Under the pieces are notes generated by a model. The model had not been told where the DNA came from. It did not search any database and was given only the letters and a program-made list of their open reading frames with translations. Shown here piece by piece: positions 1,054-20,055 of a DNA stretch of 24,000 nt. The translations under genes and the position numbers were made by a program. Origin of the DNA: an uncultured Lachnospiraceae bacterium (GTDB lineage Bacteria > Bacillota > Clostridia > Lachnospirales > Lachnospiraceae); the NCBI GenBank assembly GCA_910585075.1, contig CAJUED010000012.1:1-24000 (forward strand). Direction: 5' to 3'. Position 1 is the first letter of the stretch, and each line of letters opens with the position of its first letter.

Positions 1054-1064
1054 TTTCTTCCTCC

Positions 1065-1268: not shown

Positions 1269-1280
1269 TCGTTCTCCTCC

Positions 1281-1762: not shown

Positions 1763-3448
1763 GTGAAATTTAATTCTGTGACAATAAAGAATTTCAGGAA
1801 TTTTGAAGATATATCAATAAACTTAACCAATAAAAACGTCCTTTTTGGGATGAATGATGTAGGTAAGACAAACTTTCTGTATGCGTTAAGATTTATTTTC
1901 GATAAAGACATCAGAAAACAGAACTTCAATGATACGGATTACTACAAAAAGAATGTGGCTAATCCAATAGAGATTGTTATTGCAATTGATATTAGCGATA
2001 CAGAAGATGCAGATAGTCAAAAACTGCGTGCAAAATTGAAAGGCGCTATCCTTTCGGATCAGAATATTGTATATATCAAACTAATAGCCGATTATGACAA
2101 AAAGGAAATGATTGGCATTCCTGTTTTATACTGGGGTGGAGATATTGAAGATCTTGAAGAGATGAAAGTTCACGGCACATTCTTTGAGATTGATTATGTC
2201 TTTAATGTGATTTATATTGATGCATATGTTGATTTATATACACTATTTAAAAAGAATGCTAATACGCTACTTGTTAATGATAAGGAACAGGATAAAGATA
2301 TTTTAGAACGTATTGATAAGACATGTGACGAATTAAATACTCAGATATCTGGATTGTCCGGCATAAAGACTTTTGAAGAAAAAATTGCACCCGAATATAA
2401 AAAGTTTAGGCATGACGATATATCCGTGTCTGTAAAATCAGAAATAGCAGTAAAAGGTTTATATTCGAATATCGTTCCTTATATTAAACAAGATACTGAC
2501 GATTCTTTATATCCGACGTCTGGTGAGGGACGCAAAAAGCTTTTGGTATACGCTATTTTTGATTTACTCTCTAAAGAGGAAGAAGAAAAGAAAATCACTA
2601 TTTTTTTAATCGAAGAACCAGAAAACCATCTGCACCGTTCTATGCAGATAGCATTATCCCATATTTTATTTCTTGATAACAAATATCAATATTTGTTTAT
2701 GACAACTCATTCACCTTATGTCCTGGCAGAAATGGATCAGGTAAATCTGGTTCGAATATATAATGAAGACAAAATCGTGAGCAAAAGTGTTCTTTATACA
2801 GTGCCTGCTGAATTTAAAAGCCAAAGAAAAATGCTGAACAGAGGGCTGATAGAAGCTATTTTTGCTGATAAAGTGTTGCTTGTTGAAGGACCATCTGAAA
2901 ATGTTTTATTTGGAAAAGTATTGTCAGAGATAAACCCATTTTATGAAGCAGACGGAATTTACATACTTCCAGTAGGAGGATTTGGATTCAAGCCATATTA
3001 TCAGATATTAGATGCTTTGCAGATCGAAAATATTATTAAAACTGACAATGATTTGAGAAAGATAAAGGGAAAAGAAAAATATAGTGTATTAGGTTTTTCA
3101 AGATTAAATAATTATATAGGGAAAAAAATTCTTCCAGTTACTCCTATTAGTGAAACTGGTGTTGAAGCAAAGCGAAAACTATATGACAATAATCAACAAA
3201 AACTTGATCAAATTAGATCTGAATATTCAATCTATCTATCAAGATGTAGCCTGGAGGAAGATTTGGATGAAGTAATTCATGACCAGATGATTTCATACCT
3301 ACCTAATGCAGATGGGGATGTAATTGGATATTTGCAAGACGCTAAAAATAATCATATGGTTGAACTTGTTGAAAAACTTACAATAGAGGATTGTAAATGC
3401 ATTTATGAACACTATAACTTTGCTTGTTTAAAGGAGGTAATGCAGTAA
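1763..3448 (+). CDS. gajA: GajA, Gabija ATP-dependent OLD-family endonuclease (N-terminal ABC-type ATPase, C-terminal Toprim)
   Basis: 561 aa. N-terminus MKFNSVTIKNFRNFEDISINL..FGMNDVGKTNFLYALRF carries the Walker A motif. LIEEPENHLHRS is the Walker B/D-loop. VLLVEGPSENVLF..KTDND is the Toprim domain. C-terminus reads EHYNFACLKE. From memory these blocks closely parallel Bacillus cereus VD045 GajA; no alignment was computed. Confidence 0.9.
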   Translation: MKFNSVTIKNFRNFEDISINLTNKNVLFGMNDVGKTNFLYALRFIFDKDIRKQNFNDTDYYKKNVANPIEIVIAIDISDTEDADSQKLRAKLKGAILSDQNIVYIKLIADYDKKEMIGIPVLYWGGDIEDLEEMKVHGTFFEIDYVFNVIYIDAYVDLYTLFKKNANTLLVNDKEQDKDILERIDKTCDELNTQISGLSGIKTFEEKIAPEYKKFRHDDISVSVKSEIAVKGLYSNIVPYIKQDTDDSLYPTSGEGRKKLLVYAIFDLLSKEEEEKKITIFLIEEPENHLHRSMQIALSHILFLDNKYQYLFMTTHSPYVLAEMDQVNLVRIYNEDKIVSKSVLYTVPAEFKSQRKMLNRGLIEAIFADKVLLVEGPSENVLFGKVLSEINPFYEADGIYILPVGGFGFKPYYQILDALQIENIIKTDNDLRKIKGKEKYSVLGFSRLNNYIGKKILPVTPISETGVEAKRKLYDNNQQKLDQIRSEYSIYLSRCSLEEDLDEVIHDQMISYLPNADGDVIGYLQDAKNNHMVELVEKLTIEDCKCIYEHYNFACLKEVMQ

Positions 3449-4974
3449 TGTTATCCCCTATGCAAACGGAAATTGTTGAACAACCAGGAAATCTGATTGT
3501 TAGAGCGAGTGCTGGTACAGGAAAGACACATACCATGGTATCTAAAATTGTGTATGACATAGAACATCAACATACGCACAAGGTGGTTGCTGCAATCACT
3601 TTTACAATTAAAGCAGCTAATGAGATTAAAGAACGACTAACAATAGACACAACCAGCCATTTTATTGGAACAAACAACAGTTTCGCTATTGAAGAAATTA
3701 TTAAACCTTTTATGAAGGATGTGTTCGGTAAGACATATAAACTGGATATGAGTACGGACTATTCAGTAAAAGTAAACACATTTGAAGAAGGATTGGCAAA
3801 AATCAGAGACGAACAGGTTTTATGTTCGTATGTGAACAGTAAAGAAAACTTTATATTTCAGCTTGCTTTAGATATTTTGAAAAAGTCTAAAGCGTGTCAA
3901 TTATACTTACAGGCAAAGTATTTCAAGATTTATGTTGATGAATACCAAGACTGTGATAAAGATATGCATGCTCTTTTTATGTATATCTGTGAGTCTCTGA
4001 GCATAGACACTTTTGTTGTAGGCGATGAAAAGCAATCAATTTATATGTGGCGTGGGGCATATCCCAAAGCTTTCATAGGGATTTGGAACAGAAAAGATTT
4101 TTCCAAAAAGTTCATGAGAGATAATTTTCGTTCTTGTCAGCAAATACAAAACTATTCAAATTTACTGTGTGATGAAACCAGAGATTTATATAAGCCTATA
4201 GATGATTTGTCTTCTGTGATAATGATATGTGCCACTTCGGCTAATTGGGTATCATCGGTTATTCCGTATTTAGATTCCAATGAAAAATGTGCATTACTAA
4301 GATATAGCAATGCAAATGCTGAGGCGGGAGCTATAGATTTAACGAATGGAAATATGGAGTTTACATATATCCCACAAACACCGATTGCTGATATAACTAC
4401 AGAAACAGCATGGCTTTACAATGCCGTTGCCAAATTCTTTATTCTACCGAAATATTCGGCTTATGACTTTAGAGATGAAATACCCAACGAAGTAGTTGGA
4501 AACAAGAGAATCTTAAATTACATCAAAAAGGCATTAAGCGTTTTAGAGGGATGTATAAAGCAAGAAGATGCTTCTGGCTTTGAAAAACAAATTATACTAA
4601 TGGCAAATTACTTAGGGTATGAGACAAAGTCGGATCATTGTGATAGGCTGTATAGAACAATTTGCAATCAACGATATCATCCAGCATTTAATATTGACGG
4701 ATTGAAGCGGATCGCCATTACATTTCATTCATCAAAAGGGTTGGAGTTTGAACAGGTTATTTTATTTGTATCAGATTATAGATTATCAAGTGAACAGGAG
4801 ATATATAATTATTATGTTGCTACCACACGAGCAAAATCTAAATTGATTATGGTATATATTGATGATGACTGGAACGCAACCCAGTTTGCTAAAAATATAA
4901 ATAAGATTTTCGCCGAGTCGAATTTAAAAATGAGCGACGTAGCAACTGTTATAAATTGCTTGTGCTGTAATTAA
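3448..4974 (+). CDS. gajB: GajB, Gabija UvrD/PcrA-like superfamily-1 helicase/NTPase
   Basis: Motifs: ASAGTGKTHTM (Walker A), NFIFQLALDILKKS, YVDEYQDCDKDM (motif II), VGDEKQSIYMWRG, NFRSCQQIQNYSN and HSSKGLEFEQV..ATTRAK. Start placed at ATG 3448, giving a TAATG overlap with the gajA stop, with AAGGAGG at 3431-3437. The track's TTG at 3424 is in frame but unlikely. Confidence 0.9.
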   Translation: MLSPMQTEIVEQPGNLIVRASAGTGKTHTMVSKIVYDIEHQHTHKVVAAITFTIKAANEIKERLTIDTTSHFIGTNNSFAIEEIIKPFMKDVFGKTYKLDMSTDYSVKVNTFEEGLAKIRDEQVLCSYVNSKENFIFQLALDILKKSKACQLYLQAKYFKIYVDEYQDCDKDMHALFMYICESLSIDTFVVGDEKQSIYMWRGAYPKAFIGIWNRKDFSKKFMRDNFRSCQQIQNYSNLLCDETRDLYKPIDDLSSVIMICATSANWVSSVIPYLDSNEKCALLRYSNANAEAGAIDLTNGNMEFTYIPQTPIADITTETAWLYNAVAKFFILPKYSAYDFRDEIPNEVVGNKRILNYIKKALSVLEGCIKQEDASGFEKQIILMANYLGYETKSDHCDRLYRTICNQRYHPAFNIDGLKRIAITFHSSKGLEFEQVILFVSDYRLSSEQEIYNYYVATTRAKSKLIMVYIDDDWNATQFAKNINKIFAESNLKMSDVATVINCLCCN

Positions 4975-5295
4975 ATTATTATGAAACTAGCCTAGAAAAA
5001 CAGACACAGGGATGATTATATACTATTATAGAACAAAATGGAACTGTCGAAAGTGTGACTTGAGGGCTTGAAGCGTATCCAGTAGATGGAGTAAGCAAGG
5101 CACCCAAATAGTATTTACCACCAAACAGAATAGATTGTCTTATATGAGATAATTTATTTATAATAACATGGCAGAACTTTATAAACGTTATAAAAATGAA
5201 AAATATAGTTGGATTAGTCAAGCAAATAATAAAATACCAAAAACGAATCGAAGTTTGACATAACTTAGTCAACTCAATCAGTTAGGAGTGAAAAA

Positions 5296-5889
5296 ATGAA
5301 TTTAGATTTTAACCTCGCAGATTTTTTTAAATTGCCAACAAAAATTATGTTTGCTCTTGCCCTTGCTTCTGGTCTGGTTTTGTTTCTTCCAGATAGCATA
5401 GTCACGAAAATGTATATGGTTGATTTCAGAAATAAATATGGTTTTGTCATTGGGCTACTATTTTTAATTTCTTTTTCAATACTTGTAGTCACTGTTTTTA
5501 TAGGCATATATAAGTATTTTAATCATTTATATTTTATGAAGAAATTCAGAGCAACTGCAAAAGAAAGACTACAAAAGTTGGATAATTACCAAAAAGCAAT
5601 CGTGTATGGTCTGTATATGGAAGATAACCACACTGGCGAATTACCATTACATGACGGGGCTGTAAAATTGCTTAAGCAAAATATAATAATTACAGAAACC
5701 ACAAATCAATATGCTGTATCAGATTTAAACAATGCTGTTTTTCCTTATATGTTGCACCCATGGGTTATTGAAGAACTTCAAAAAGATAGTGAGTTGCTTT
5801 CCATTTTTAATGCAGCATATAAAGAAATGAATAATAAATACAAACTTCAAAGTCAATATGAGTCCTCATACCTTGACTTTCCGTACTAA
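5296..5889 (+). CDS. Two-TM membrane protein, superinfection-exclusion-B (SieB)-like; function unproven
   Basis: 197 aa with AGGAG Shine-Dalgarno at 5284-5288. Two hydrophobic helices (KIMFALALASGLVLFL; GFVIGLLFLISFSILVVTVFIGIY) are followed by a soluble domain, LDNYQKAIVYGLY...GELPLHDGAVKLLKQNIII. This layout resembles my recollection of Pfam SieB. It shares the AT-rich composition and strand of Gabija. Confidence 0.55.
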   Translation: MNLDFNLADFFKLPTKIMFALALASGLVLFLPDSIVTKMYMVDFRNKYGFVIGLLFLISFSILVVTVFIGIYKYFNHLYFMKKFRATAKERLQKLDNYQKAIVYGLYMEDNHTGELPLHDGAVKLLKQNIIITETTNQYAVSDLNNAVFPYMLHPWVIEELQKDSELLSIFNAAYKEMNNKYKLQSQYESSYLDFPY

Positions 5890-6112: not shown

Positions 6113-6119
6113 ATTAGCT

Positions 6120-7043
6120 TCAATAAAAATTACTGAAATAGTCTCTACTGATAATTTCTCCTATTCCTCCTATAACCGTTTCGTAAGGAAGATATGTAAA
6201 CAACATCCTGCCTGTAATCTCTTCATAATCATTCCGGTATATTTCCTTATCCACAATTTCTGTCAAAAGGTCATTGATACATACCTCTTTTTGGGCAGAC
6301 GGACAGACCGGAAGAGGTTCCCGCAGGCATCGTACTTCCTTAACAAGCTCTGACAATGAAACATCTGGCGTTGTGTATTCCAGGATCTTATAGATATCAT
6401 ATAAATGTCGAGAATGCCGCTCTACCTTGCCAGACAGATAATAGTCACAGAGGGCAAAGACTTTATCAATAAGAGTCCGCTCAATCGCCTGGGTTGTGAT
6501 TTCAAAAGGCATAAGGTCAAATTCTTCTGCCAGTTCTTCCCGTCCTGCCATTTTCAGAAAACGATAAATATAGTTGTCAGCAATCCGATTTACTGTTGGA
6601 AACGGCAGGAGGGCAATATAGGTCTCGATGACCAGTTCCGGCTTTAATTCCAAAAGCGGGGAATAAATGCTGGGATAGCTGGCCTTGTAACAGTTATAAC
6701 TACGCCGGCTGCGGGTTTCTTCAAGGTTTGCAACAGAAAACCCAAGGGATTCTACAGAAGAAACCACCGCCTTTTTTAACTGACGCTTGCGGCTTTCGCC
6801 AGGAATGCCGTCTGATGCCGCATAAGAAATATCAATATCCTCCGAAAAACGATCCAGAATCTGATAGCACTTTGTAAGCGAGGTCCCTCCTTTAAAGACC
6901 ATTCCCTTCACCCTGGCGGCCAACTCTTTAAGAACAAGTGTAACATAATAATCTTTCTCAATGATTCCGGGCGGTATGTGCAGTTCGTTGGAAGCGGCAA
7001 CAACCAGTTCGCTGAATGCTTCCTTGTCATGATGTAAATTCAT
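6120..7043 (-). CDS. abiEii: AbiEii/AbiGii-family nucleotidyltransferase toxin (type IV TA / abortive infection)
   Basis: Carries FKGGTSLTKCY...RFSEDIDI, the signature of DUF1814/AbiEii nucleotidyltransferases. Start taken as ATG 7043 (MNLHHDKEAF), which overlaps the abiEi stop by 17 nt. The track's TTG at 7061 is less likely. Confidence 0.85.
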   Translation of the reverse strand: MNLHHDKEAFSELVVAASNELHIPPGIIEKDYYVTLVLKELAARVKGMVFKGGTSLTKCYQILDRFSEDIDISYAASDGIPGESRKRQLKKAVVSSVESLGFSVANLEETRSRRSYNCYKASYPSIYSPLLELKPELVIETYIALLPFPTVNRIADNYIYRFLKMAGREELAEEFDLMPFEITTQAIERTLIDKVFALCDYYLSGKVERHSRHLYDIYKILEYTTPDVSLSELVKEVRCLREPLPVCPSAQKEVCINDLLTEIVDKEIYRNDYEEITGRMLFTYLPYETVIGGIGEIISRDYFSNFY

Positions 7044-7653
7044 AAATAATACCCCATTCAATCAGTTTTTTTGCGGTAGACCCTGTAATGCCGGGCAGCA
7101 CGCCGGAAAGAAGAGCCTTGCTGTAATTTTTCTGTTTTGCATAGTTTTTTAAAAGCGCTCCGGTTTCTGCATCTGAAAGCTCCGAATATTTTTCTGCCTG
7201 GGAAACAGCATCAAGAAACTGGAGCAGTCCCGCATTTTCAGATGTTATAGCAACAGCTGGACGTTTCAGCCGGACGTTTTGGGAACCGACAGTAACATTG
7301 CGCCCTTTTGTCGCTTCTTTCGATGTTATGATTTCCAGTATAGCCGGCATCTGGGTCGTCAGGCCAATCTGGTTAGCAAACGTAGCTCCGGCGAAATAAC
7401 CGTAGACTTCTGTTGTGTTTTGGATATATTTGCGTATAATGACCTTCATGGGGTCTAAATAACTTTTTTTCAGCAGACGTGATGCTTTGGGAAGATAATA
7501 GATCCCAGTATCAAACCGGGCAAGGTCACCGGATTTGAGCATCCGTTTAAAATACTGACGCAGGGCATTATCATTGATTCCGTCCAGCCGGATCTCGTTA
7601 ATGAAAATCGGTTCATTGTAACCATAGTTTTTTTCCAGATATTCTTTCAGCAT
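7027..7653 (-). CDS. abiEi: AbiEi-family antitoxin / transcriptional regulator (type IV TA)
   Basis: N-terminal winged-helix-like region with ...SGDLARFDTGIYYLP, typical of AbiEi_4/DUF6088 proteins. It sits directly upstream of, and overlaps, abiEii. Start preferred at ATG 7653 (MLKEYLEK), which has GGAAGGAG upstream. ATG 7680 has no Shine-Dalgarno and would lie inside the predicted promoter. Confidence 0.75.
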   Translation of the reverse strand: MLKEYLEKNYGYNEPIFINEIRLDGINDNALRQYFKRMLKSGDLARFDTGIYYLPKASRLLKKSYLDPMKVIIRKYIQNTTEVYGYFAGATFANQIGLTTQMPAILEIITSKEATKGRNVTVGSQNVRLKRPAVAITSENAGLLQFLDAVSQAEKYSELSDAETGALLKNYAKQKNYSKALLSGVLPGITGSTAKKLIEWGIIYEFTS

Positions 7654-7682
7654 ACAGGCATCCACTCCTTCCACCTCCATAC

Positions 7683-7846: not shown

Positions 7847-8371
7847 TTACAGTTCCGTATCTGCCCGGTCATAGTACAAATGCCCCTGTGCCACTTTCGC
7901 ATGGTTCAAAATCAGTATGAAATGCCTGTCCTGGTTCTCCAATGCCTTTTTATATCCGGTTTTCGTCAGAAACAGTCTCATCCGACTCCCTTTATCCCCT
8001 ATGGGAGACTTTTCCGAAAGTACATCAAACACAATCATATGCTCTACTTCCGGATCAAAGCGTTCCAATGCCATGATATCATGTCCTTCCAGCTTCCGGG
8101 CACCGGATTTCTGCCGGGCCACAGCAATCATTTCCCCGACAGTCCTTGCGCTATGGGGCAGATGATAATTTCTCTGAATGTCACAGATCAGTTCTCTGCA
8201 GTCATCCTCCGAAAGTTCACGCAGTTTCTTTAACAGATTTTCTGCAGTATCCTTTTTATCATGGTCACGGGTATACCTGCAGAATACAGCAATCTCCTGT
8301 ATTGCATCATATCTGCCGCACCCCTCCAGCTGAAAGACCATCCTTTTCTCATCTTCAGTCAATGTTATCAT
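7847..8371 (-). CDS. TTRAP-like (transposon-transfer assisting) N-terminal domain fused to an uncharacterised C-terminal domain
   Basis: Start placed at ATG 8371 (MITLTEDEKRMVFQLEGCGRYDAIQEI...) with GGAGGA at 8377-8382. The N-terminal roughly 70 aa follow the TTRAP pattern as I recall it (xTxEExxxxxxx....L..L..LSDxD). I do not recognise the C-terminal roughly 100 aa. Confidence 0.5.
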   Translation of the reverse strand: MITLTEDEKRMVFQLEGCGRYDAIQEIAVFCRYTRDHDKKDTAENLLKKLRELSEDDCRELICDIQRNYHLPHSARTVGEMIAVARQKSGARKLEGHDIMALERFDPEVEHMIVFDVLSEKSPIGDKGSRMRLFLTKTGYKKALENQDRHFILILNHAKVAQGHLYYDRADTEL

Positions 8372-8419
8372 ATATTTCCTCCAATCCATAATTGCCTGTA
8401 TATTTCATATAGCTGCCTG

Positions 8420-8965
8420 TTATTGCTCTCTGGCATCCTTATCATCCGGAAAGAACTTCTCCAGAATGTCGATACTGTCTTTGGATGTATACCCCCACAA
8501 GATAGAGCTGAGTGCGTCAATCGCCTCCCGTCTTCTGCGGTAATAAGTGCGGAAACTGATATCCCGGATATGGGGGCGCAGTTTCTCTATGATTTCCTCC
8601 ACATTCCGCAACTGTTGTGGAGAAAGGAAAGAGTAATACAGCAGCCAGTAATAGCTCTCCCCATTCTTGTGTTTAGTGCGGAGCAGGTCGATGGAAGTAT
8701 CCAGTAGTTTCAGCATCCGGTGGCTCCGTTCAATGCATTTGGCGTGATGTTCGATACTGCGGTCTGACAGATCGATCCCGGCAACATAGACGGACTCCAG
8801 AAAGTCCTCAATGGAACTGCCGTATTCAATCTCGAACCGGCTCCGTACCTGCTGGACGGACAGTTCCAAGCTCCACACCACATCCCTGTATTTCTTCAGC
8901 AGTTTCCAGGTATCATGGTACAGCGGGTTGTCAGTGATGTTCATTTCTTCCTGATTCTTTTTCAT
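8420..8965 (-). CDS. Sigma-70 region-4 / ArpU-like transcriptional regulator of the mobile element
   Basis: 181 aa. The C-terminal ...ISFRTYYRRRREAIDALSSILWG resembles the HTH tail of ArpU/sigma-like regulators found in clostridial conjugative transposons. ATGA overlap with the upstream HTH gene (8962-8965). Shine-Dalgarno GGGGGAG is present. Confidence 0.5.
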   Translation of the reverse strand: MKKNQEEMNITDNPLYHDTWKLLKKYRDVVWSLELSVQQVRSRFEIEYGSSIEDFLESVYVAGIDLSDRSIEHHAKCIERSHRMLKLLDTSIDLLRTKHKNGESYYWLLYYSFLSPQQLRNVEEIIEKLRPHIRDISFRTYYRRRREAIDALSSILWGYTSKDSIDILEKFFPDDKDAREQ

Positions 8966-10119
8966 GCTCTTTCTCCCCCTTCCTCATTCTTTTCAGCAGG
9001 CATGAGAACCAGCTCAAAAGTGTAGACTGGCTTATCTTCTCCGCAGCATACCGCCATTCCAAAACGTACTGCAGTCTTTGGTGTATGACATATATACTCT
9101 TCCCTGCAGGCGTCTGATAAAGGATATAACTTATATATAGATTTCTGGCACTGAAAACAGGAAATTCCCTGTGCATCAAGGACTTGCGCTATTTTTCTGA
9201 TAACAGCATCCATGTCTGATTTTGAAACGCAGGATAATTCTTCTGAAACGCATGCCTCATACCCAGTAACAACAGAATCTGCCTGCGGCTCTTCTTTATC
9301 CGGCAGCGTGATATTGATTTTCAGGATCATGGCAACCTCCTCTTTATCCACAAGAACATCTGATATCTGGAACATGGTGGAAAGATAGCTGTGCAGATAG
9401 ATCACACTGCCTGTTTTTCCGGGAAATGACATGAGAGAAATATAGTCCATGTCAGCAAGTTTTTTCAGCACACGCCCTGTCGTGGCTTTGGAGATGCCCC
9501 AGCGGGCAGCCATCTCACTGTAAGCCACTAACGGGGAGCCGGTGCCATTGCGGAAGTAAGCAACCGGGCCAATCTCCGAACCCTGCACCTGGCTGTCATT
9601 GTAGACAGCAGACATCCACAGATCCAGCAGGATATCCATTTCGGAACAGCGGCCGGCGCTGACCAGTTCGGTTGCAACAACAACCGGCATAAAGAAAAAG
9701 CCCGTATCTTTCTGACAGGGGCAGTTGTAATCCAGTACCGTATTCTGTTTTTTCCAGTCACGGATCTTATATTTGATTACCTTCCCACGGTCGAGGAAGA
9801 GATAGGAGATCAGGTGGCGTTTCTGCAGCTCGTCCAGGATGGAGACTGCCTGGCACTGGAAACGGGTACGGAACCATGCAGACAGTTCCTTTACGGTACA
9901 GATCCACTCGCCGGGATATACCGTATAGCCGATTCCATCTATACGGAGATAAGAGGTACGGAAGTTTGCATAGTTGCAGAGCACCGTATAATAAAACAGA
10001 CCGGAGCCTCCATTTGTACGAATGCTCCGGTCTGCCATTAAGTTCTGGATAAACTGCCGATAGATCCGGCAGCGTGGATAATCCACAATCTGTTTGATTT
10101 CTAATTGATATTCTGACAT
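8962..10119 (-). CDS. Helix-turn-helix (winged-helix) domain protein of the element; putative replication or regulatory function
   Basis: Start at ATG 10119 (MSEYQLEIKQIVDYPRCRIY...) with AGGAGAAAATC upstream; the track's 10209 start lacks a Shine-Dalgarno. Internal HTH reads YSEMAARWGISKATTGRVLKKLADMDYISL. Translationally coupled to the sigma-like gene. Confidence 0.6.
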   Translation of the reverse strand: MSEYQLEIKQIVDYPRCRIYRQFIQNLMADRSIRTNGGSGLFYYTVLCNYANFRTSYLRIDGIGYTVYPGEWICTVKELSAWFRTRFQCQAVSILDELQKRHLISYLFLDRGKVIKYKIRDWKKQNTVLDYNCPCQKDTGFFFMPVVVATELVSAGRCSEMDILLDLWMSAVYNDSQVQGSEIGPVAYFRNGTGSPLVAYSEMAARWGISKATTGRVLKKLADMDYISLMSFPGKTGSVIYLHSYLSTMFQISDVLVDKEEVAMILKINITLPDKEEPQADSVVTGYEACVSEELSCVSKSDMDAVIRKIAQVLDAQGISCFQCQKSIYKLYPLSDACREEYICHTPKTAVRFGMAVCCGEDKPVYTFELVLMPAEKNEEGGERA

Positions 10120-10188
10120 GATTTTCTCCTCATTTCTTAAAGTTTTTCTGATGCGAAAATTAAGTTTCTGCTGTTTACTCATTTTCTG

Positions 10189-10229
10189 CAAAAAAAATCT
10201 ACAAGACAAATTTCCAATGTCTTGTAGAT
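10189..10229 (-). terminator. Rho-independent terminator: 12-bp stem, 9-nt loop and T-run on the minus strand
   Basis: ATCTACAAGACA (10197-10208) and TGTCTTGTAGAT (10218-10229) are exact reverse complements. On the minus strand the stem is followed by T7 (plus-strand A-run 10190-10196). It sits between the uvrB junction and the first element gene. Confidence 0.6.
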
Positions 10230-10347
10230 CATAAATCAGCCTCTATTTCTTTTTCAAAATACTTTCCACGACGAATTTTGTTCACAATTCCTATGATTCC
10301 ACCCTGTTTTTTCAGTCCATACAGTCCATTCATTCCACAAGATATAG

Positions 10348-10377
10348 TATAAATAGGACTAAATAACACTAAATACA
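10348..10377. repeat. Three tandem 10-bp units (TATAAATAGG / ACTAAATAAC / ACTAAATACA) next to the element/uvrB junction
   Basis: Read directly. The core (C)TAAATA recurs with 10-bp helical phasing, 20-50 bp inside the apparent junction. Confidence 0.55.
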
Positions 10378-10397
10378 GTAGTTAGAAGTGCCTACTC

Positions 10398-10670
10398 CTA
10401 GTAGCTTACAAAGTACTCCACCGCATTCTCAGGGAAGAACTCCTTGAACTCGCCGTACAACTGTCCGGCCAGGGTTTTATTGTGGGCTATTACCAAAGTA
10501 GGCTTGTTTATAGCGGCAATCACATTTGCCATGGTAAAGGTCTTTCCGGAACCCGTTACCCCCAGTAAAGTCTGGAATTGATTGCCTTCTTTGAAGCCTT
10601 TGACCAGGGCTTCTATGGCCTGCGGCTGGTCGCCGGTAGGCTTATATTCACTGTGCAGTTTAAACTCCAT
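10398..10670 (-). pseudogene. uvrB: uvrB 5' fragment (excinuclease ABC subunit B, first 90 codons only), interrupted by the mobile element
   Basis: [52 protein letters not shown]...[14 protein letters not shown] is the canonical UvrB N-terminus including Walker A. Full-length UvrB is about 660 aa and continues YYDYYQPEAY. Here a TAG follows at 10398-10400 and the downstream DNA is unrelated. Confidence 0.85.
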
Positions 10671-10780
10671 AAACCTAATTCACCTCCAGAAATAAAATTT
10701 AAATGCTCTATTCCCACAGCAAAAAATCTGACCATTGATACGGCATTCCTGTATATGCTGCCTGTGCAAAAGCAGTTTTG

Positions 10781-10809
10781 ATTATAACATACGGGATAAA
10801 ATTTGTACA
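10781..10809 (-). promoter_or_regulatory. Candidate uvrB promoter: extended -10 TGtTATAAT and -35 TGTACA
   Basis: On the minus strand, TATAAT is the complement of 10781-10786, preceded by TGt. TGTACA lies at 10804-10809 with a 17-nt spacer. It is about 110 nt upstream of the uvrB ATG. Confidence 0.4.
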
Positions 10810-10819
10810 GCACTTTTCA

Positions 10820-10831
10820 GAACATTTGTTC
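10820..10831. promoter_or_regulatory. LexA (Cheo-type SOS) box GAACATTTGTTC
   Basis: aGAAC-N4-GTTCt palindromic arms match the Firmicutes LexA consensus CGAAC-N4-GTTCG core. It sits just upstream of the candidate -35 of uvrB, a classic SOS gene. Confidence 0.55.
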
Positions 10832-10964
10832 TTATTTCATAACAGTTCAGCCTTCAACTTCACTGTTACGGAATCTCTCCGGTTTCATACAATAATGGGA
10901 AAGTTGATGTTTCCGGCATTTATCTCAACCGAAAATACAACTTTCCCATTTATTCTTAACCATA

Positions 10965-12266
10965 TTACTGCTTCTTAGCAATTTCCTGCTCTAATATCTC
11001 AATCGCCTTATCCACCTGGTTATCGCTTCCGCTGGCCTCGCTGGCTTCATAGTCATACTCCAATTCAATATCCGGTTTGATTCCCGTACCATGGATATTC
11101 CTTCCCAGGGGCGTATAATAAGCGCTGATGGTCAGCTTAAGGGCGGTACCGTCGTTGAGCCGGTGTATCTGCTGGACAATTCCCTTTCCGTAGGTAGTGG
11201 TTCCAACCAGCGTGCCCTTTTTATAATCCTGAATGGCCCCTGCCAGTATCTCGGAAGCGCTTGCCGAATATTCATTTACCAGTACCACCAGGGGAACATC
11301 CAGCTCCTTTTCCCCGTCGCAGGAGTATTCCTTCCGTGTTCCCTGTTTGTCCTCGGTGTATACGATAAGCCCCTCCGGCAGTATTTTTCTGGCGATTTCC
11401 ACCACCGCATTTAAATCGCCCCCGGGATTGCTGCGAAGGTCAAGTATCATACCTTCCATACCGTTTGCCCGCAATTCCGCCATCGCCTCCGTATACTGGT
11501 CCACGGTCACCGCGTCAAACTCCTGAATCCGCAGATACCCGATATTGTCGGCATCCTCCAACATACCGCTGTCCACCGTGTTGGTCTCCAGCCGTTTGCT
11601 CCGTTTGATTTCCATCCGCTGGAAATCAACCTCGCCTTCCCTGTAAATCGTCAATTCCACAGTGGTTCCTTCCCGTCCCTTCACCAGGCTGACCACCTGG
11701 GTAAGGCTCATTCCCTGGGTGGACTCGCCGTCCACCTCATAAATGATATCCCCTTCCCTAAGACCTGCCTCCTCAGCCGGGGAGCCTTCCATAACCCCGT
11801 TAATCATGGCGATATTCATCTGCTTGCTCATGGAAATATAAGCCCCTATTCCATAAGAAACCCCCTGATTGCTGTTTACCACTTCCTCCAGTTCTTCTTT
11901 GGAATAATACTCGGAATAAGGGTCCCCTAAGGCATTTACCATTCCTTTATAAATGCCTTCCTGTATTCTTTCTTCGTCTATCTTATCCTCATAGAAATAA
12001 TACTCATTGATAGCATTCTCTATAATCTGCATTTTCTCAAAGGTGTCGGCAGTCACCACACTTTCACTGCCGCCCTCCGCAGCCGTATCCACCACGCGCC
12101 CTTTGTACAGCCGGTAAATCGTCCTTCCCAGATATCCGCATGTAAAAAGCAGGGATATGACAAGCATTCCCGTAACCATACCGCCTAAAAAGTATCCGGA
12201 ATGCTTCCCCTTCACCGGCTCATCCTGTCTCTCTATTCTGTTGTCCGTTCCCTCTGCCTTGTCCAC
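10965..12266 (-). CDS. S41 family C-terminal processing (tail-specific) protease with N-terminal TM anchor and PDZ domain
   Basis: 433 aa with a TM helix (FLGGMVTGMLVISLLF) and PDZ-like GDIIYEVDGEST. S41 catalytic blocks are LDLRSNPGG, SASASEILAGA and KGIVQ. GTG start with GGAGAG Shine-Dalgarno. Confidence 0.85.
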   Translation of the reverse strand: MDKAEGTDNRIERQDEPVKGKHSGYFLGGMVTGMLVISLLFTCGYLGRTIYRLYKGRVVDTAAEGGSESVVTADTFEKMQIIENAINEYYFYEDKIDEERIQEGIYKGMVNALGDPYSEYYSKEELEEVVNSNQGVSYGIGAYISMSKQMNIAMINGVMEGSPAEEAGLREGDIIYEVDGESTQGMSLTQVVSLVKGREGTTVELTIYREGEVDFQRMEIKRSKRLETNTVDSGMLEDADNIGYLRIQEFDAVTVDQYTEAMAELRANGMEGMILDLRSNPGGDLNAVVEIARKILPEGLIVYTEDKQGTRKEYSCDGEKELDVPLVVLVNEYSASASEILAGAIQDYKKGTLVGTTTYGKGIVQQIHRLNDGTALKLTISAYYTPLGRNIHGTGIKPDIELEYDYEASEASGSDNQVDKAIEILEQEIAKKQ

Positions 12267-12320
12267 TTATATTCTCTCCATTCCGGTCAATCTCTGTCTT
12301 TCCACAATCTCACAATTTAT

Positions 12321-13541
12321 TCAGCCCCCTAAGTACTTCCTGGGATTCACATAGCTTCCGTTTAACCGTACCCCAAAGTGCAGGTGGTTTCCCGTGGAAC
12401 GCCCCGTGCTTCCCACTGCTGCAATCTTAGCTCCCTTTGAGACTTCCGCCCCCTTTGAAACATAAAGAGCTGACGCATGCATGTAAATCGTATACAGGCC
12501 GTCGCCGTGATCTATCATAATATAGTTTCCCATACTGCCGCTGTAGGCTGCAGCCACAACTTTTCCATCATAGGCCGCCAAAATGGGACTTCCTCCCGGC
12601 GCCGCCATATCAAGGCCGTTATGAAATTTCTTCACCTTTAAGGTAGGATGCATACGCTCCCCGTATTCGTCAGAAATCCTTGTATAGGAAGGCGCGGGCC
12701 ACGTAAACATGCCTCCGTCATACCGGCGTGCCTGCTCCTCCGCCAGCTTCTTCTTCTCCTCGGCAACCGCCGCTTCCAGCGCCGCAATAGTCTCATTTTC
12801 AGATGCAATGCTGGCCTCGTACTCCTTGATGGCAGCCTCTTTGTCCTTGATGTCCCCTGAAACCTTATAAATTTCCTGTTCCTTGGCCGCTATCAGTTCG
12901 TTTAAAGAGGCTTCTTCTTTCCTGGCCGCCTCCTTGGCTTCCTCCAGGACTCCCTTTTCTTCTTCCAATCCTTCTTTGCACAGCGACACATACTCCGCAT
13001 AAGCCACATATTCATCCAGCATTTTCCTGTCATAGGCGGAAAGCATCTCTATGTAATCCGCCTTATTCAGCATATCTCCAAAGCTCTCCGCCTCCAAAAA
13101 GAGCTCCAGAAACAGAGTATCACCTTTTTCATACATGAATTTGATGCGGTTCTTCATGGCTTTATACTGGTCCTGCTGGGTTTCGATGGCCTCCTCCAGC
13201 TCCCCGGTTTTCACATTGATTTCTTCTTCTTTCTCCTCAATCATTGTTTTGAGTTCGTTGAGCTTTGCCTGAATACCCGCAAGGTCAGTGTCCAGCTTCG
13301 CCACATAATTGGCCAGATCCGCCTTGGACGCCTCCAGCTGCTTTTTCAATTCTTTTACATTTGTAAGGCCGCCCTGCAGCGCCTTTTTTTCTTCCTTTGC
13401 TTTATTGATTTCTGCTTCCTTCTTTTTGATACTGTCATTGGTCAGCTCGCTGGCATAAGCAGTGGTCTCACCCTCCCAGGCAATTCCCCAAACCAGTCCA
13501 AGGCAAAGCAGCACACAAAGCATATTTCTCCATCGCCTCAT
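12321..13541 (-). CDS. M23 family metallopeptidase with signal peptide and long coiled-coil N-terminus (EnvC/PcsB-like FtsEX partner)
   Basis: Signal-like MLCVLLCLGLVWGIAW, then a roughly 250-aa K/E/A-rich coiled coil. C-terminal LytM motifs are HNGLDMAAPGGSPI and GNHLHFGVRLNG. Directly downstream of ftsEX. Confidence 0.85.
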   Translation of the reverse strand: MRRWRNMLCVLLCLGLVWGIAWEGETTAYASELTNDSIKKKEAEINKAKEEKKALQGGLTNVKELKKQLEASKADLANYVAKLDTDLAGIQAKLNELKTMIEEKEEEINVKTGELEEAIETQQDQYKAMKNRIKFMYEKGDTLFLELFLEAESFGDMLNKADYIEMLSAYDRKMLDEYVAYAEYVSLCKEGLEEEKGVLEEAKEAARKEEASLNELIAAKEQEIYKVSGDIKDKEAAIKEYEASIASENETIAALEAAVAEEKKKLAEEQARRYDGGMFTWPAPSYTRISDEYGERMHPTLKVKKFHNGLDMAAPGGSPILAAYDGKVVAAAYSGSMGNYIMIDHGDGLYTIYMHASALYVSKGAEVSKGAKIAAVGSTGRSTGNHLHFGVRLNGSYVNPRKYLGG

Positions 13542-13552
13542 CTTTACCTCAA

Positions 13553-14449
13553 TTACACCTTAAGGTGTTTCCTGACCGTAGTCACACTGCCCAAAAATCC
13601 CATGCCCACTCCCATGATAATGGATGCCGGCAGCAACGTGTTAAAGATAATCTCCACCGGCAGGAAGGATAACAATTTTGTCAAAATGGAAAACCTTAAC
13701 ATAATATATTCAATCACTTTTTCATAAAGAACGTACAGGATTCCCACCGGTATCATTGCGCCAATCAATCCAATCATCATGCCTTCAATCACGAAAGGAG
13801 CCCGGACAAAAAAGTCTGTGGCGCCAATATACTTCATAATATTAATTTCCTCTTTCCGCACGGAAATACCGATTGTTACCGTGTTGCTGATAAGGAAAAT
13901 GGACACTGCAAACAAAATGACTATGATACCTACTGAAATATATGCGATCAGGGCATTCACCCCTGTCAGTGTGGACGCCATGACCTCAGACCTGTTTACC
14001 TCCCTGATTCCTTCCGTCTCCTCCAGATAGGAAACCAGCGCCGGCTGCATGGACACGTCGCTCAAGTAAATCTCATAGCTGGCTGAATTCTCCAGGGGGT
14101 TTTCCGTAAAACCGTCCGCATATTCTCCCAGGTAATCCTCCCGAAACTCCGCCCATGCTTCGTCTGCGGATTTAAACACCACTTTGGAAACTTCCGTGCG
14201 CTTTTCGATCATTGCGCCAATCTCCTGTATCCGCTCCTGGCTGATTCCCTCATCAAAGAACACTGTTACCGACATGCCTTCCTCGGCATTTTTCACAATA
14301 CTCTGAAAATTCATTACAATAGCATAAAACAATCCAAACAAAAACAGACAGGCCCCGATCGTGGCTATGGATGCCAGCGAAAACCATTTGTTTCTGAAAA
14401 TATTGATGATTCCCTGCTTAATGGTATAAAAAAATGTACTAATCCTCAT
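13553..14449 (-). CDS. ftsX: FtsX-like cell-division permease
   Basis: 298 aa with an N-terminal TM, an extracellular domain and three C-terminal TMs. Overlaps the ftsE stop by 11 nt. Confidence 0.85.
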   Translation of the reverse strand: MRISTFFYTIKQGIINIFRNKWFSLASIATIGACLFLFGLFYAIVMNFQSIVKNAEEGMSVTVFFDEGISQERIQEIGAMIEKRTEVSKVVFKSADEAWAEFREDYLGEYADGFTENPLENSASYEIYLSDVSMQPALVSYLEETEGIREVNRSEVMASTLTGVNALIAYISVGIIVILFAVSIFLISNTVTIGISVRKEEINIMKYIGATDFFVRAPFVIEGMMIGLIGAMIPVGILYVLYEKVIEYIMLRFSILTKLLSFLPVEIIFNTLLPASIIMGVGMGFLGSVTTVRKHLKV

Positions 14450-15185
14450 CTATGTAGCCACCTTTTTCTTCGTCGCTTACAATGACGCCTTTCTTCATGG
14501 TAACAACCCTCTTTTGCATTGCATTGACAATCTCACGATTGTGGGTTACCACAAGCACCGTCGTTCCGTTTTCGTTAATCTGCTCCAGCAGCTTCATAAT
14601 TTCCCAGGAATTCTTAGGGTCCAGATTACCCGTAGGCTCGTCCGCAAGCAGAATGCTGGGGCGGTTCACAAGCGCCCTGGCAATGGCCACTCTCTGCTGC
14701 TCCCCTCCGGAGAGCTGTCTGGGTTTTGCTTTATACTTTCCCGCCAGCCCCACAATTGCCAGAATGCTGGGAACATTCCGCTTAATTTCTTTGTTTGACA
14801 CCTGTATAATGCGCTGTGCAAAAGCCACATTTTCATATACGTTTCTGTCCTTCAAAAGACGGAAATCCTGGAACACAATACCAAGATTTCTTCGGAATTT
14901 GGGTATTTTCCTGTGGCGTATCCGCACCAGATCGTACCCCATCACATTAATATCGCCTGAAGTGGGTACAAGTTCTCTAAGCAGGAGCTTGATCATGGTA
15001 GATTTCCCCGATCCGCTGTCCCCTACAATAAATACGAATTCGCCCTTTTTAATATGTAAACTGACTCCGTTTAACGCAGGGGCCCCTGTGGCATACGCTT
15101 TACTTACATTGTTCAGCGTAATAATTTCATCCCCTCCGGAAATATGCTTTTTTCTTCTCCTGCTTCTTGCGTCACTTCTTACCAC
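14439..15185 (-). CDS. ftsE: FtsE cell-division ABC ATPase
   Basis: Walker [10 protein letters not shown], signature [15 protein letters not shown] and Walker [16 protein letters not shown] start at 15185 with GGAGGA upstream. The exact start is ambiguous (see finding). Confidence 0.9.
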
Positions 15186-15218
15186 AATTATCCTCCGCCT
15201 GTACTTTCGTACTTCATT

Positions 15219-16307
15219 TTAATAATCAAGACTTTCCATATAATTCATATATTTCACTACCATAAGCGCAATTCTAAATGTAATGGCATCTTCAAAAATC
15301 CGAAGATCCAGCCCGGTACTCTTTTGCAGCTTATCCAGACGGTACACCAATGTATTCCTGTGGATAAACAACTGCCTTGAAGTCTCGGATACATTCAGGC
15401 TGTTTTCAAAAAACTTGTTGATGGTTGTAAGGGTTTCCTCATCAAATTCATCCAGCCCCCTGCCTCCAAAAATTTCTTTGATAAACATCTTACAAAGGGG
15501 AATGGGCAGCTGATAAATCAAACGGCCAATCCCAAGCTCGCTGTAGGCAATGATATTTCTCTCGTCAAAAAAGATTTTTCCTACATCCATAGCCATTTTT
15601 GCTTCCTTGTAGGAGCGGCTTACCTCTTTAATCTCCCTGACCACCGTCCCATAAGCAATATGTACTTCCGTCATGCCCTCTTTCTTTAAGAAGGCCTCCA
15701 TGCTGTCCGCATTCCTTTCAATTTCCTTAGCGCTGTCTCCTTCGGACAAATCTTTAACCACAATCACATTATTTTCATCCACTGCAGTGACGAAATCCTT
15801 CGTGTTACTGCCGTAAAAACTCCTTATGGTTTCTAAGATATTACTGTCCCGGCTGGCGCCTGTCTCAATGACCATCACCACACGCTTTACATCCGTCTGT
15901 ATATGCAGTTTTTTGGCGCGGCTGTAAATATCCACCAAAAGCATATTATCCAGCAGAAGGTTTTTGATAAAATTGTCCTTGTCAAACCGTTCTTTATAAG
16001 CCACCAGCAGATTTTGAATCTGGAACGCTGCCATCTTTCCAACCATGTACACGTCCTCTCCGATTCCCGCCGCAATCAGAACATACTCAGGCTGCTGCTC
16101 ATCATATATTTTAAAATATTGATATCCCCGTATCTCCTGAGAATCCGCCGGTGATTTGGCAAACTCCACCGTCTCCGTCTCACAGCCCGACATGGCAGGC
16201 GACGTGCAGGCAGCTTCTTTCCCATCCACATCCATAACGCAAAAATCTACCCTTGCAATTGCCTTAAGCCCCTCAATTGTGTTTTGCAAAATTTGATTAG
16301 AAATCAT
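15219..16307 (-). CDS. PucR/CdaR-family transcriptional regulator
   Basis: 362 aa. The C-terminal [33 protein letters not shown] matches the PucR C-terminal HTH pattern. Strong Shine-Dalgarno AAGGAGGGGG. Confidence 0.8.
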
Positions 16308-16555
16308 TTGCCCCCTCCTTATTATTGTCTAAATTGCTATGCAAAATAAACAATATTTCTTTTGATTAATTGCTCTCCCCATTAGACTTCTTTTCTATAT
16401 TAATATAAATACACAAGAAAATCTACCGGTATTTATAAAATTTTTGTGTATTTTTTATGTTTTCCGGTACTTTTTTCCATTCTGAAATTCTATGCAACCT
16501 TCACAAAAGAAAAAGGCGAAACACTAAACTAATTATTCCACTTTTTTCTAATTTG

Positions 16556-16564
16556 TGGTATAAT
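16556..16564 (+). promoter_or_regulatory. Extended -10 element TGgTATAAT in the divergent intergenic region upstream of the YjfB-like gene
   Basis: TGnTATAAT match, with a weak -35 (TTCCAC) at 17-nt spacing. It would give a leader of about 150 nt. Confidence 0.35.
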
Positions 16565-16724
16565 AGATTCAAAGATTGTAGATGGCTTAATACAAAACAA
16601 GATACGTATAATCATAAGATTTTTTATGGCGTATGTCAAAATCAAATTGTAAATGTTCACAAAAATTTAATTATTTTACCAGTAAAGCCCAATTTCAGGG
16701 CCTATGGCAGAACGGAGTGTAATT

Positions 16725-16913
16725 ATGAATATCCCTGAATTATCAACCGCTTTGGCAAATGTACAACTTTCCAATCAGGTGGGAATCGCGGTTCTCGACA
16801 AAGCAATGGAAAATTCCGAAGTACTCGGTGAAAGTCTGATTAGCATGATGAACAATTCCATGGAATTATCAGTGAATCCCCACATTGGGGGAAATATTGA
16901 CATGTTGATTTAA
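16725..16913 (+). CDS. YjfB-family small protein (putative motility protein family)
   Basis: MNIPELSTALANVQLSNQVGIAVLDKAMENSEVLGESLISMM...IGGNIDMLI fits the YjfB_motility pattern as I recall it. Start at ATG 16725 with GGAG 7 nt upstream; the track's upstream start at 16704 is unlikely. Confidence 0.7.
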   Translation: MNIPELSTALANVQLSNQVGIAVLDKAMENSEVLGESLISMMNNSMELSVNPHIGGNIDMLI

Positions 16914-16963
16914 TTTTGCCCCCTGGCAAACAACTTGAGGAATCAGGTTGTCACGTTTCTTTA

Positions 16964-18004
16964 TTATTGGAGGATTTTTTGGACAACCGCAAAGAAAATC
17001 CCCGTCATCATACTCAAGCAGAGGATAAGAGCCAGTACAAACGGTACGGAAACCATCTTATCCTTTTTTTCTGTCTTCCGATACGTTGACTCATAAGACA
17101 TTACCTCCCCAGGCACATGCTCTTGGAACATTGTTTCCGGAACTGACGTCTCCCGGGGCAATTCCTTCTTAAGCAGTTTTCTCTTGGGCAGAAACACCGA
17201 CAATGCCCCCTGTCTGCCTTCATTGATACCGAGCCAGATCAGCACGGCCCAGGCCAGCGGCAATGTCACTGCTGCCAATACCAGATAAACTCCAATCCCA
17301 TAAAATAAAAAGTCTGTTGTAATTACTTCCGCCTGTTCACTGTAAAGATTTGGATTTACTTTAAGCGCTCCATACAAAAGCATGGTCTGACTCCCATTTA
17401 TAAAGCCATGATAGAGAATGCAGGGCCACAGGCTTCCCGTTGCTTCCAGCAGAAGAACCGACAGAATCCCCATTGCAAAAGCATAGCTTGCCTGATTAAA
17501 ATTCATATGAACCAGGGCAAAAATAAGCGCCGACATAATCATTGCACCAAAAGCGCTCCCTGATTTGCGGTAGGAATGATAGTAAGCCCCCCTGCAGGTA
17601 ATTTCCTCAATCACAGGCGCAATAATTCCCATGGAAAGGTACAAAACCCCAAAGGCCATCTCTCCCGCGCTCAAGCTTTCCATGGATGACGCCACTTCAT
17701 TTTCCACCCAGAGCTGGGAAAAAAGATTCAGTACCGTAAGCAAAGGCATGCTCAGGAACGTAAACAGCCCCGTCATAAGCACGGTAGTAAATTTTATCCT
17801 GCGAAATCCTAAAAAAGAAACTATTTTCTCCTTTGACGCCAGCGCAAAAACCATCACCGGCAATACCACCACTATCTCGCAGGCCAGATTACTGAAAAAC
17901 AGGCTCTCAGCTACGAAAGGGAAAAACAGGGCAATTACAAGCAGCATCCCTACATAGCATACAATTGTTATAAAAAATGCCCAATTTGCTTTTTTACTGT
18001 TCAT
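16964..18004 (-). CDS. CPBP-family intramembrane glutamic endopeptidase (CAAX protease-like) with C-terminal extension
   Basis: Polytopic membrane protein with EEITCRG (EExxxR) and FALVH (FxxxH) motifs. Shine-Dalgarno GAGGAA. Confidence 0.8.
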   Translation of the reverse strand: MNSKKANWAFFITIVCYVGMLLVIALFFPFVAESLFFSNLACEIVVVLPVMVFALASKEKIVSFLGFRRIKFTTVLMTGLFTFLSMPLLTVLNLFSQLWVENEVASSMESLSAGEMAFGVLYLSMGIIAPVIEEITCRGAYYHSYRKSGSAFGAMIMSALIFALVHMNFNQASYAFAMGILSVLLLEATGSLWPCILYHGFINGSQTMLLYGALKVNPNLYSEQAEVITTDFLFYGIGVYLVLAAVTLPLAWAVLIWLGINEGRQGALSVFLPKRKLLKKELPRETSVPETMFQEHVPGEVMSYESTYRKTEKKDKMVSVPFVLALILCLSMMTGIFFAVVQKILQ

Positions 18005-18086
18005 TACGTTTCCTCACACACTCAAAGCCACTGTCCCGATCATCCTTACGGACGAACCATACCGGCAGCATCCCTCTCCATTACCT

Positions 18087-18929: not shown

Positions 18930-19044
18930 TACTTCCTATCCTCCGTATTACCTCGCCCTACGGCGTTTCAATCCTGACTGAATCTCTCATGCACCCTGCA
19001 TTGCCCGCAGCCCGGCTTTATTCCTCTTACAGCTTCGCAATCAT

Positions 19045-19764: not shown

Positions 19765-19926
19765 GACTATCCTCTCCATCCCATTGTTATCTTCGCCCGG
19801 AGCGGCGTTTTAATCTTATTATATCCATTTTACCGCCTGCCCACAACCCTGACTTTCATCAAGGTTTTATTTCCAATACCCCGTAGCTCTGCTGCGTAAC
19901 AAGCTTGCTGCGGGGTATTAGACCGC

Positions 19927-19963
19927 ATAAAAAACCCTGGTGAAAGGATTCACCAGGGTTTTT
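19927..19963. terminator. Bidirectional intrinsic terminator downstream of tRNA-Gln
   Basis: CCCTGGTGAA (19935-19944) / TTCACCAGGG (19949-19958) form a 10-bp stem with a 4-nt loop. It is flanked by an A-run (19928-19934) and a T-run (19959-19963). Confidence 0.8.
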
Positions 19964-19965
19964 CG

Positions 19966-20037: not shown

Positions 20038-20055
20038 ATGTCATTTACTTAAGCT

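Follow-up and report, generated by a model that had tools for sequence, protein, structure and literature searches.

A displaced uvrB start at the end of a mobile element in an uncultured Lachnospiraceae bacterium: a probable case of integration that regenerates its target

A mobile element in the reading frame of uvrB raises the question of whether its host has lost nucleotide excision repair or still possesses a complete gene. This question is posed by a stretch of 24,000 nucleotides from an uncultured Lachnospiraceae bacterium, called the window here at its full length, in which a uvrB gene breaks off after 90 codons and DNA of an element follows. With a probability of about 0.8, this fragment, uvrB', is the displaced original start of uvrB and the attL-side stub of an element that regenerates its target at codon 90/91. 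The event would probably be a site-specific integration that applies the principle of the islands in tRNA genes to the 5' end of uvrB.

The uvrB fragment, its junction, and the element in the window

The following features of the window are needed first.

10965..15185, minus strand: host flank with the genes for an S41 peptidase (10965-12266) and an M23 peptidase (12321-13541), ftsX (13553-14449), and ftsE (14439-15185)
10819..10832, no strand assigned: palindrome AGAACATTTGTTCT of the GAAC-N4-GTTC (LexA/SOS box) type, read from the sequence, upstream of uvrB'
10781..10809, minus strand: promoter-like site of uvrB' (TGTACA, 17-nt spacer, TG-TATAAT) with 10 of 12 consensus matches and an extended -10 site
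10398..10670, minus strand: uvrB', the probably displaced uvrB 5' fragment, codons 1 to 90 with Walker A plus TAG
10400..10398, minus strand: stop codon TAG of uvrB', supplied by the element end
10395..10412, minus strand: junction and putative attL core region, ...TTTGTAAGCTAC followed by TAGGAG; uvrB identity ends after TAC TA
8962..10122, minus strand: first long element gene, 386 aa, weak helix-turn-helix (HTH) match
7847..8965, minus strand: backbone genes for a 181-aa protein without family match and a DUF5720 protein
6120..7680, minus strand: AbiEi/AbiEii abortive-infection pair (E values of 7e-72 and 7e-79)
1763..5889, plus strand: Gabija genes gajA (1763-3448) and gajB (3424-4974), and sieB (5296-5889)
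1..1090, minus strand: cysteine-rich element gene cut by the window edge, so that the element extends past position 1

Since the gene is located on the minus strand, “downstream” of uvrB' means toward lower coordinates. UvrB residues 1 to 90, with the Walker A motif GVTGSGKTF, are encoded by 10670..10401 and end in ...EYFVSY; TAG comes next, and the sequence beyond it has no similarity to uvrB. The open reading frame matched chain residues 5 to 92 of the UvrB structure 2d7d_A (E value of 1.2e-39) and was 95% identical to residues 10 to 97 of the closest intact UvrB obtained, that of locus L072. An independent metagenome-assembled genome (MAG) contig, GCA_949022135.1 (L001), was 99.94% identical to positions 20670..10190 of the window, a region that spans the junction and 208 nt of the element, and the six mismatches were apparently all in the element part. 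The junction is therefore not an assembly error at 10398, which a first interpretation from the letters alone (the sequence-only reading) had named as a possible objection. The same reading had described a uvrB N terminus with Walker A that proceeds to ...EYFVSY and then meets TAG, and reading frame, structure match, and independent MAG all agree with it. No second UvrB-like segment was found when the rest of the 24-kb window was compared with UvrB, so that the remaining codons, about 570, are absent from the window, as had also been said of the DNA past the junction.

The gene order S41 peptidase, M23 peptidase, ftsX, and ftsE also precedes uvrB in relatives. The host flank additionally contains a tRNA gene at 19966-20037 on the minus strand (Rfam RF00005, 62.9 bits).

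DNA of the mobile element occupies positions 1 to 10397 and continues past the left edge of the window. It had been called unrelated and AT-rich; unrelated it is, while AT-rich describes it only in part, with a GC content of 0.38 just past the junction and of 0.31 to 0.51 over the heterogeneous element as a whole. The first long gene has a 385-aa counterpart at the matching position of locus L052, and an exact-sequence look-up of the 386-aa protein itself returned no record. Together, the HTH gene and the gene for the 181-aa protein showed about 70% DNA identity to a region of a Vescimonas plasmid that lies beside VirD4-like and PrgI-family genes. In the plasmid and phage collections, distant relatives of the backbone were located on Vescimonas and Subdoligranulum plasmids, outside uvrB. 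Neither a recombinase nor an integrase was found in the 24-kb window, nor were genes for a coupling protein, a relaxase, or a mating channel in the 10.4 kb of element seen.

The visible cargo is anti-phage defense, consisting of Gabija, SieB, and AbiEi/AbiEii. The two Gabija genes are adjacent to each other (E values of 1e-233 for GajA and 3e-183 for GajB), as are those of the AbiEi/AbiEii pair, and the Gabija-SieB block, with a GC content of 0.31 to 0.36, is AT-rich in contrast to the remaining element. The cysteine-rich gene seems to be present in more than one kind of element: positions 1 to 1611 only of the window were 83% identical on the DNA level to 9433-11052 of a contig listed as viral in IMG/VR (IMGVR_UViG_2858553787_000006, L206), where the neighbors differ and neither uvrB nor an integrase is present within 10 kb. 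This occurrence among different neighbors indicates that this backbone gene moves between elements. Searches of viral contigs with the element end motif, the integrase relatives described below, and the cysteine-rich protein gave no match that was close or that reached an element end.

Codon 90/91 of uvrB and the arms of the elements

The uvrB' protein was searched against 5.8 billion proteins, and all counts given here refer to the 120 best matches. Directly after ...EYFVSY(Y), 77 of the 120 continued with a tail that was not UvrB, although a handful of these tails look like frameshifts or sequence variants; 11 ended after ...EYFVS and 7 after ...EYFVSY, and only 22 continued as uvrB. The tails fell into at least 7 to 10 unrelated families, for example YVHNSTPQYLVA, YYYSYLYTIYR, YGT, YNFA, and YVFWFFGRIASP. 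About 95 of the 120 best matches thus stop at the same codon and are followed by unrelated element ends, which identifies this codon as a recurrent attachment site. On the DNA level, nine near junctions were compared with intact genes, and uvrB identity was always lost within codons 90 and 91; the shortest shared uvrB end was that of L131, ...GTN WSN TA. Contigs retrieved for six stub fragments led to six different elements: one was window-like and one was an RtcB/type I restriction island, a third contained an IS1595 transposase together with an HTH_17 excisionase-like gene, two others contained a DNA ligase and a DUF927 protein, respectively, and in the sixth case the contig ended at the junction. 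In every locus examined, the first element genes were co-oriented with uvrB. The site-specific junction at the same nucleotides is present in independent genomes, and the recurrence in many loci sustains the proposal that a mobile element inserted site-specifically into the uvrB frame at this position.

A different end was seen in three UvrB fragments (P0012, P0013, and P0016), which terminate with ...ASVSCIYG at about residue 145; one of them has 587 member sequences, on contigs of up to 42 kb. They may mark another break point of uvrB or simply be ends of contigs.

The element arm next to the junction contains a series of short features.

10367..10381, minus strand: element-arm motif CTACTGTATTTAGTG, conserved among relatives
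10332..10347, minus strand: element-arm block CTATATCTTGTGGAAT, with a short core (...TCC.TAT...) common to integrase-linked uvrB leaders
10270..10284, minus strand: TGAACAAAATTCGTC, candidate arm-type integrase or excisionase binding site, 117 nt from the junction
10229..10333, minus strand: small open reading frame of 34 aa that overlaps the arm site, doubtful as a gene
10191..10231, minus strand: terminator-like hairpin followed by T8 (dG of -19.8 kcal/mol, z of -4.5)

The counterpart of CTACTGTATTTAGTG in relatives, C(T/A)A(C/T)ATATAGT(G/A) at +24 to +36 from the junction, is kept across the otherwise different element ends of L049, L006, L182, L174, L175, and L185. Between the arm site and the junction of the window are the CTATATCTTGTGGAAT block and a ..ATATAGTG-type motif, both of which were found in other elements, and the motifs of the window arm come in the same order as there. 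The arm site TGAACAAAATTCGTC occurs once in the window, with a chance expectation of 0. It belongs to the motif family TGA(A/C)C-N3-4-ATTCGT(C/G), which is found across the loci at two fixed places and in one orientation. The place in the element arm is 99 to 117 nt past the junction, and that in the leaders, both those of integrase-linked modules and those of former modules that have been displaced, is 351 to 413 nt before it. The version in the arm of the window, TGAAC-N4-ATTCGTC, recurs in integrase-linked leaders. Judged from their sequences and positions, the conserved motifs on both arms may be binding sites for the integrase or an excisionase.

The hairpin of the window follows the arm site and precedes the first long element gene, and equivalents with a T-run exist in L049/L052, L006, L174, and L185; in five element families, hairpin and T-run are located about 200 to 300 nt inside the near end. 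They presumably stop transcription coming from the displaced uvrB promoter. Capture of an SOS promoter by the element, with simple read-through from uvrB' into the element genes, was considered and rejected, since the near end contains a conserved terminator-like hairpin, which speaks against it.

The palindrome AGAACATTTGTTCT is a candidate LexA site, judged by its fit to the Firmicute consensus GAAC-N4-GTTC. Similar boxes are present upstream of the intact uvrB at the empty site L066 and also directly after the stop codon of the integrase gene in L193, L058, and L061. In the latter three loci, the integrase stop is followed by the GAAC-N4-GTTC-type box, a -10 element, the leader, a Shine-Dalgarno sequence, and uvrB, which starts with VQTAQ....

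Element-derived uvrB leaders also contain an ATTCGT... motif with an inverted partner about 50 nt downstream (L193, 4440-4540; L058, 1525-1600; L049, 9955-10030), and the partners show compensatory changes, GTCAAGG/CCTTGAC and GTCCAGG/CCTGGAC. The sequence of these inverted pairs would be compatible with protein-binding sites arranged in pairs or with a conserved hairpin of the leader RNA; an Rfam scan of the uvrB leader gave no family match.

Complete uvrB genes at the far ends of related elements

Two loci contain both ends of an element on one contig. L186 (40 kb) carries, in this order, a uvrB' fragment at 1006-1314, an island of 14.4 kb, a full-length uvrB for 660 aa at 15872-17854, the gene for an AIM24 protein, and uvrA. 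The fragment and the full-length gene form a direct repeat of 444 bp with 92% identity that comprises codons 1 to about 88 and, with the promoter, about 180 nt of the sequence preceding the ATG. This repeat is a mosaic, with 100% identity upstream of the ATG and about 10% divergence in the coding part. A Q-to-R change at a conserved position of the stub suggests decay. The far end of L186 recurs in L188 and L190, which come from other samples. In L131, from a sheep-gut MAG, the stub, an insert of 1.2 kb, and a full uvrB follow each other in a row, with a repeat of 252 nt and 93% identity. Neither of these two elements carries an integrase, and the content of both is unlike that of the element in the window.

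The far ends of other elements do contain an integrase. In L193/L196, on 18 contigs, a full-length uvrB is preceded at a distance of 260 nt by the gene for a tyrosine integrase of 442 aa with the domains Arm-DNA-bind_4, Phage_int_SAM_3, and Phage_integrase; AbiE-type cargo is located upstream of the integrase gene and uvrA downstream of uvrB. Homologues with 45 to 65% identity are encoded upstream of full-length uvrB in the species-representative genomes L058, L061, and L090, and they keep the catalytic residues R, H-x-x-R, H, and Y. The gap between integrase gene and uvrB is about 220 to 320 nt in L058, L090, and L193/L196. It amounts to 1.3 kb in L061, which is the isolate Lachnospiraceae bacterium MGB1 and has two tandem integrases. 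These integrases upstream of uvrB were detected by tblastn and had been missed by a regular-expression screen for recombinases. The cluster of the L193-type integrase at 90% identity has 961 members. The regenerated uvrB next to the integrase possesses its own SOS-box-like promoter.

All far ends that were observed for this attachment site (L186, L131, L193/L196, L058, L061, and L090) hold a complete uvrB, in which the promoter and the first 90 or so codons are a repeat of the displaced fragment, while the window-type elements (the window, L049 to L054, and L006) are represented by near ends only, the 38.9-kb contig of L006 stopping short of the far end. The integrase is linked to the window only by arm motifs in common and by a single common cargo gene, namely that for AbiEi, the window version of which is 86% identical to the gene adjoining the integrase in L193. 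The rest of uvrB had been expected beyond the far end of the element, and in the relatives uvrB is indeed located there. A full-length uvrB elsewhere had been named as evidence against a split gene; the relatives do have a full-length gene, located not elsewhere but at the far end of the element.

Two side observations concern the history of such sites. Upstream of the 90-codon stub in L175 (9365-10000, also in L176 to L180) are a remnant of 37 integrase residues, an old leader with the arm motif, here 599 nt before the junction, and an older uvrB start of about 15 codons. These stacked relics indicate serial insertions, each of which displaced the previous module. In L072 (2570-9980), 7.4 kb of accessory genes, including genes for GntR, ABC-2, and an Agr-like LytTR two-component pair, are located between the S41 peptidase gene and a uvrB with an element-type N terminus (VQNEQK...), with no integrase there; this block may be a decayed island.

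These data can be combined into a model for the generation of uvrB'. An element of this kind would encode a tyrosine integrase with an arm-binding domain and, beside it, a substitute 5' module of uvrB composed of an SOS-box-like promoter, a leader, and codons 1 to 90. Recombination at the core around codon 90 would, as seen in the relatives, fuse this module in frame to codons 91 to the end of the host gene, so that the far end has a full-length uvrB with uvrA behind it and the near end retains the host's own promoter and first 90 codons as a dead stub. The event would be catalyzed by the integrase, with strand exchange probably in ...TTTGTNWSNTA..., and subsequent homologous recombination between the long repeats could generate mosaics and elements without an integrase. 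In the window, the integrase and the regenerated uvrB would be situated past position 1, so that the host would keep its repair gene intact and thereby nucleotide excision repair. The model presumes an active integrase, a crossover at this position, and expression of the regenerated uvrB. It also would allow the N-terminal module to be exchanged horizontally, as observed in relatives.

Alternatively, uvrB may be truly split, its 5' part unreplaced, and the host repair-defective or a mutator until a regulated excision. This possibility, which corresponds to the sequence-only reading of an interrupted excision-repair gene of the comK, sigK, spsM, or mutL type, is quite unlikely. The window itself would agree with it, as it contains a truncated 5' fragment only and no restoring sequence within 10.4 kb, and the far ends seen belong to other element types than that of the window. 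Against it, the relatives have a full-length uvrB at each of these far ends, and the window arm shares candidate binding-site motifs with the integrase-linked restoring modules. Moreover, a true split should leave 3' fragments that begin with codon 91. Two protein searches with C-terminal queries (from L072 and L075) retrieved full-length UvrBs only, with P0302 being a noisy assembly. A scan of metagenome DNA for codon 91 onward without a preceding uvrB gave 32 matches, none of which adjoined an element; most were due to indels, adaptors, and N-runs, and a few were 5' truncations of uvrB beside host genes (L142/L156, L148). With C-terminal UvrB queries against viral contigs, the genes were intact in all 41 loci, and the plasmid and phage collections contained no interrupted uvrB. 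Among the 80 best full-length matches to a full-length UvrB query in the genome collection, L058, L061, L090, and L131 were occupied sites. The absence of fragments from codon 91 onward, although 5'-only fragments are abundant, supports regeneration of the target.

The few 5' truncations among these matches deserve a description of their own. In L142 (around position 2077) and L156 (around 8659), uvrB from codon 91 follows directly after genes for a cytochrome oxidase and a HiPIP with an identical junction sequence; these are independent contigs, one of them from a water-column sample. In L148, uvrB is similarly truncated beside a 4-alpha-glucanotransferase gene. No element or integrase was seen in any of the three.

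Insertion by a large serine recombinase with a true split of the gene was considered separately. Such a recombinase was absent from the near ends of six families (7 to 19 kb), only full-length uvrB genes or artefacts were found, and the far ends carry tyrosine integrases, so this candidate was rejected. The accessible part of the serine recombinase supplement of Durrant et al. lists no uvrB site, and no description of uvrB as an integration target was found in the searchable literature; this target may be present, unremarked, in the large island databases.

The same arrangement as in the target-regenerating integration could also result from a RecA-dependent single crossover (Campbell type) through 270 to 450 bp of uvrB homology on a circular element. 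The long direct repeats without an integrase in L186 and L131, the mosaic structure of the repeat with its identical upstream part and diverged coding part, and recombinant N-terminal alleles such as P0188 would all be consistent with such an event. As the primary mode of insertion it is nevertheless very unlikely: many unrelated families of elements lose uvrB homology at the same nucleotides, the regenerated gene has a member of a dedicated family of tyrosine integrases encoded upstream of it in four species, and the conserved motifs are found at fixed distances on both arms. It is more likely that homologous recombination explains later losses and mosaicism rather than the primary insertion. 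An assembly artefact or a chance frameshift at 10398, finally, is conceivable as a general matter and of negligible probability, given that dozens of other assemblies contain the same junction, as does the independent MAG with its 99.94% identity.

Regeneration of the target with a foreign module leaves a trace in the UvrB proteins. UvrB alleles of one species differ at 13 to 15 positions in the first 88 residues versus 6 or fewer in the remaining 550 or so; for P0190 and P0194, there were 14 differences in the 88 N-terminal residues and 1 in the later 550 (Fisher p of 5e-12). One Lachnospiraceae species group (P0186 to P0226) has at least 4 N-terminal UvrB modules on a nearly invariant remainder, and recombinants between these modules occur, for example P0188. 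Allele P0206 was picked in the expectation of an integrase upstream of its gene, and the integrase was present (L193/L196).

If the stub is a by-product of target-regenerating integration, a truncated repair gene beside an island does not mean a host without repair. Codon 90/91, in one of the most conserved stretches of bacterial genomes, would be a crowded attachment site in Clostridia of gut and rumen that is used by many unrelated islands carrying defense genes. Horizontal exchange would affect the uvrB promoter and the N-terminal 90 residues of UvrB with their ATP-binding motif and produce chimeric alleles, which would mislead uvrB-based typing, phylogeny, and pseudogene calls. An integrase family bound to such a conserved site could serve as a broad-host landing-pad tool.

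A further thought, unlikely to be correct, is that the element rewires regulation in both directions or else lacks the restoring module and truly switches uvrB off. In the case of rewiring, the uvrB of the host would be transcribed from a promoter and leader of the element that contain candidate integrase or excisionase sites and through which the element could influence excision repair. In turn, the SOS-regulated promoter of the host, displaced by the integration, would point into the element and could act as a DNA damage sensor for its activation.

Comparison with known systems

In the tRNA and tmRNA gene islands of the Islander/TIGER class, integration splits the target and the island sequence restores it (PMC4383910, PMC12884075). 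Many islands in protein-coding genes also restore their target (PMC12884075), and 43% of mapped islands are located in protein-coding sequences (PMC12424338). The uvrB elements, as seen in the relatives, resemble the Islander/TIGER islands in having a tyrosine integrase by one end and a displaced fragment that marks the other end as a direct repeat. They differ in their target, a protein-coding DNA repair gene that is hit in its 5' part, and in the restored segment, which is large and comprises the promoter, the SOS-box-like operator, the leader, and 270 coding nt with Walker A. As this segment includes the promoter, the island would also take over transcription of the uvrB gene of the host.

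Insertion inside a conserved protein-coding gene is likewise known from e14 and phage 21 in icd of Escherichia coli, which carry a substitute 3' end of icd with synonymous differences, so that the gene stays functional. There, the 3' end of icd is replaced, whereas it is the 5' end with the promoter in the uvrB elements.

The regulated gene interruptions represented by SP-beta in spsM (PMC5499854) and phi10403S in comK (PMC7397523) as well as by skin in sigK and SpyCIM1 in mutL share with the uvrB elements a fixed insertion site within the frame of a gene that is conserved, and mutL is, like uvrB, a DNA repair gene. In those systems, the gene has no restoring sequence and stays inactive as long as the element is not excised, whereas uvrB is restored in the relatives, which makes a switch unnecessary. 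The recombinases of skin and SP-beta are of the serine type, in contrast to the uvrB-linked tyrosine integrase. The closest solved structure to the latter, although very distant (E value of 6e-7), is that of the Tn1549 integrase (Tn1549/Tn916 type, PDB 6EMY), a tyrosine recombinase of the conjugative transposon group of Firmicutes. The uvrB-linked integrase family is tied to one site in uvrB, unlike the Tn1549/Tn916-type integrases with their relaxed choice of AT-rich targets.
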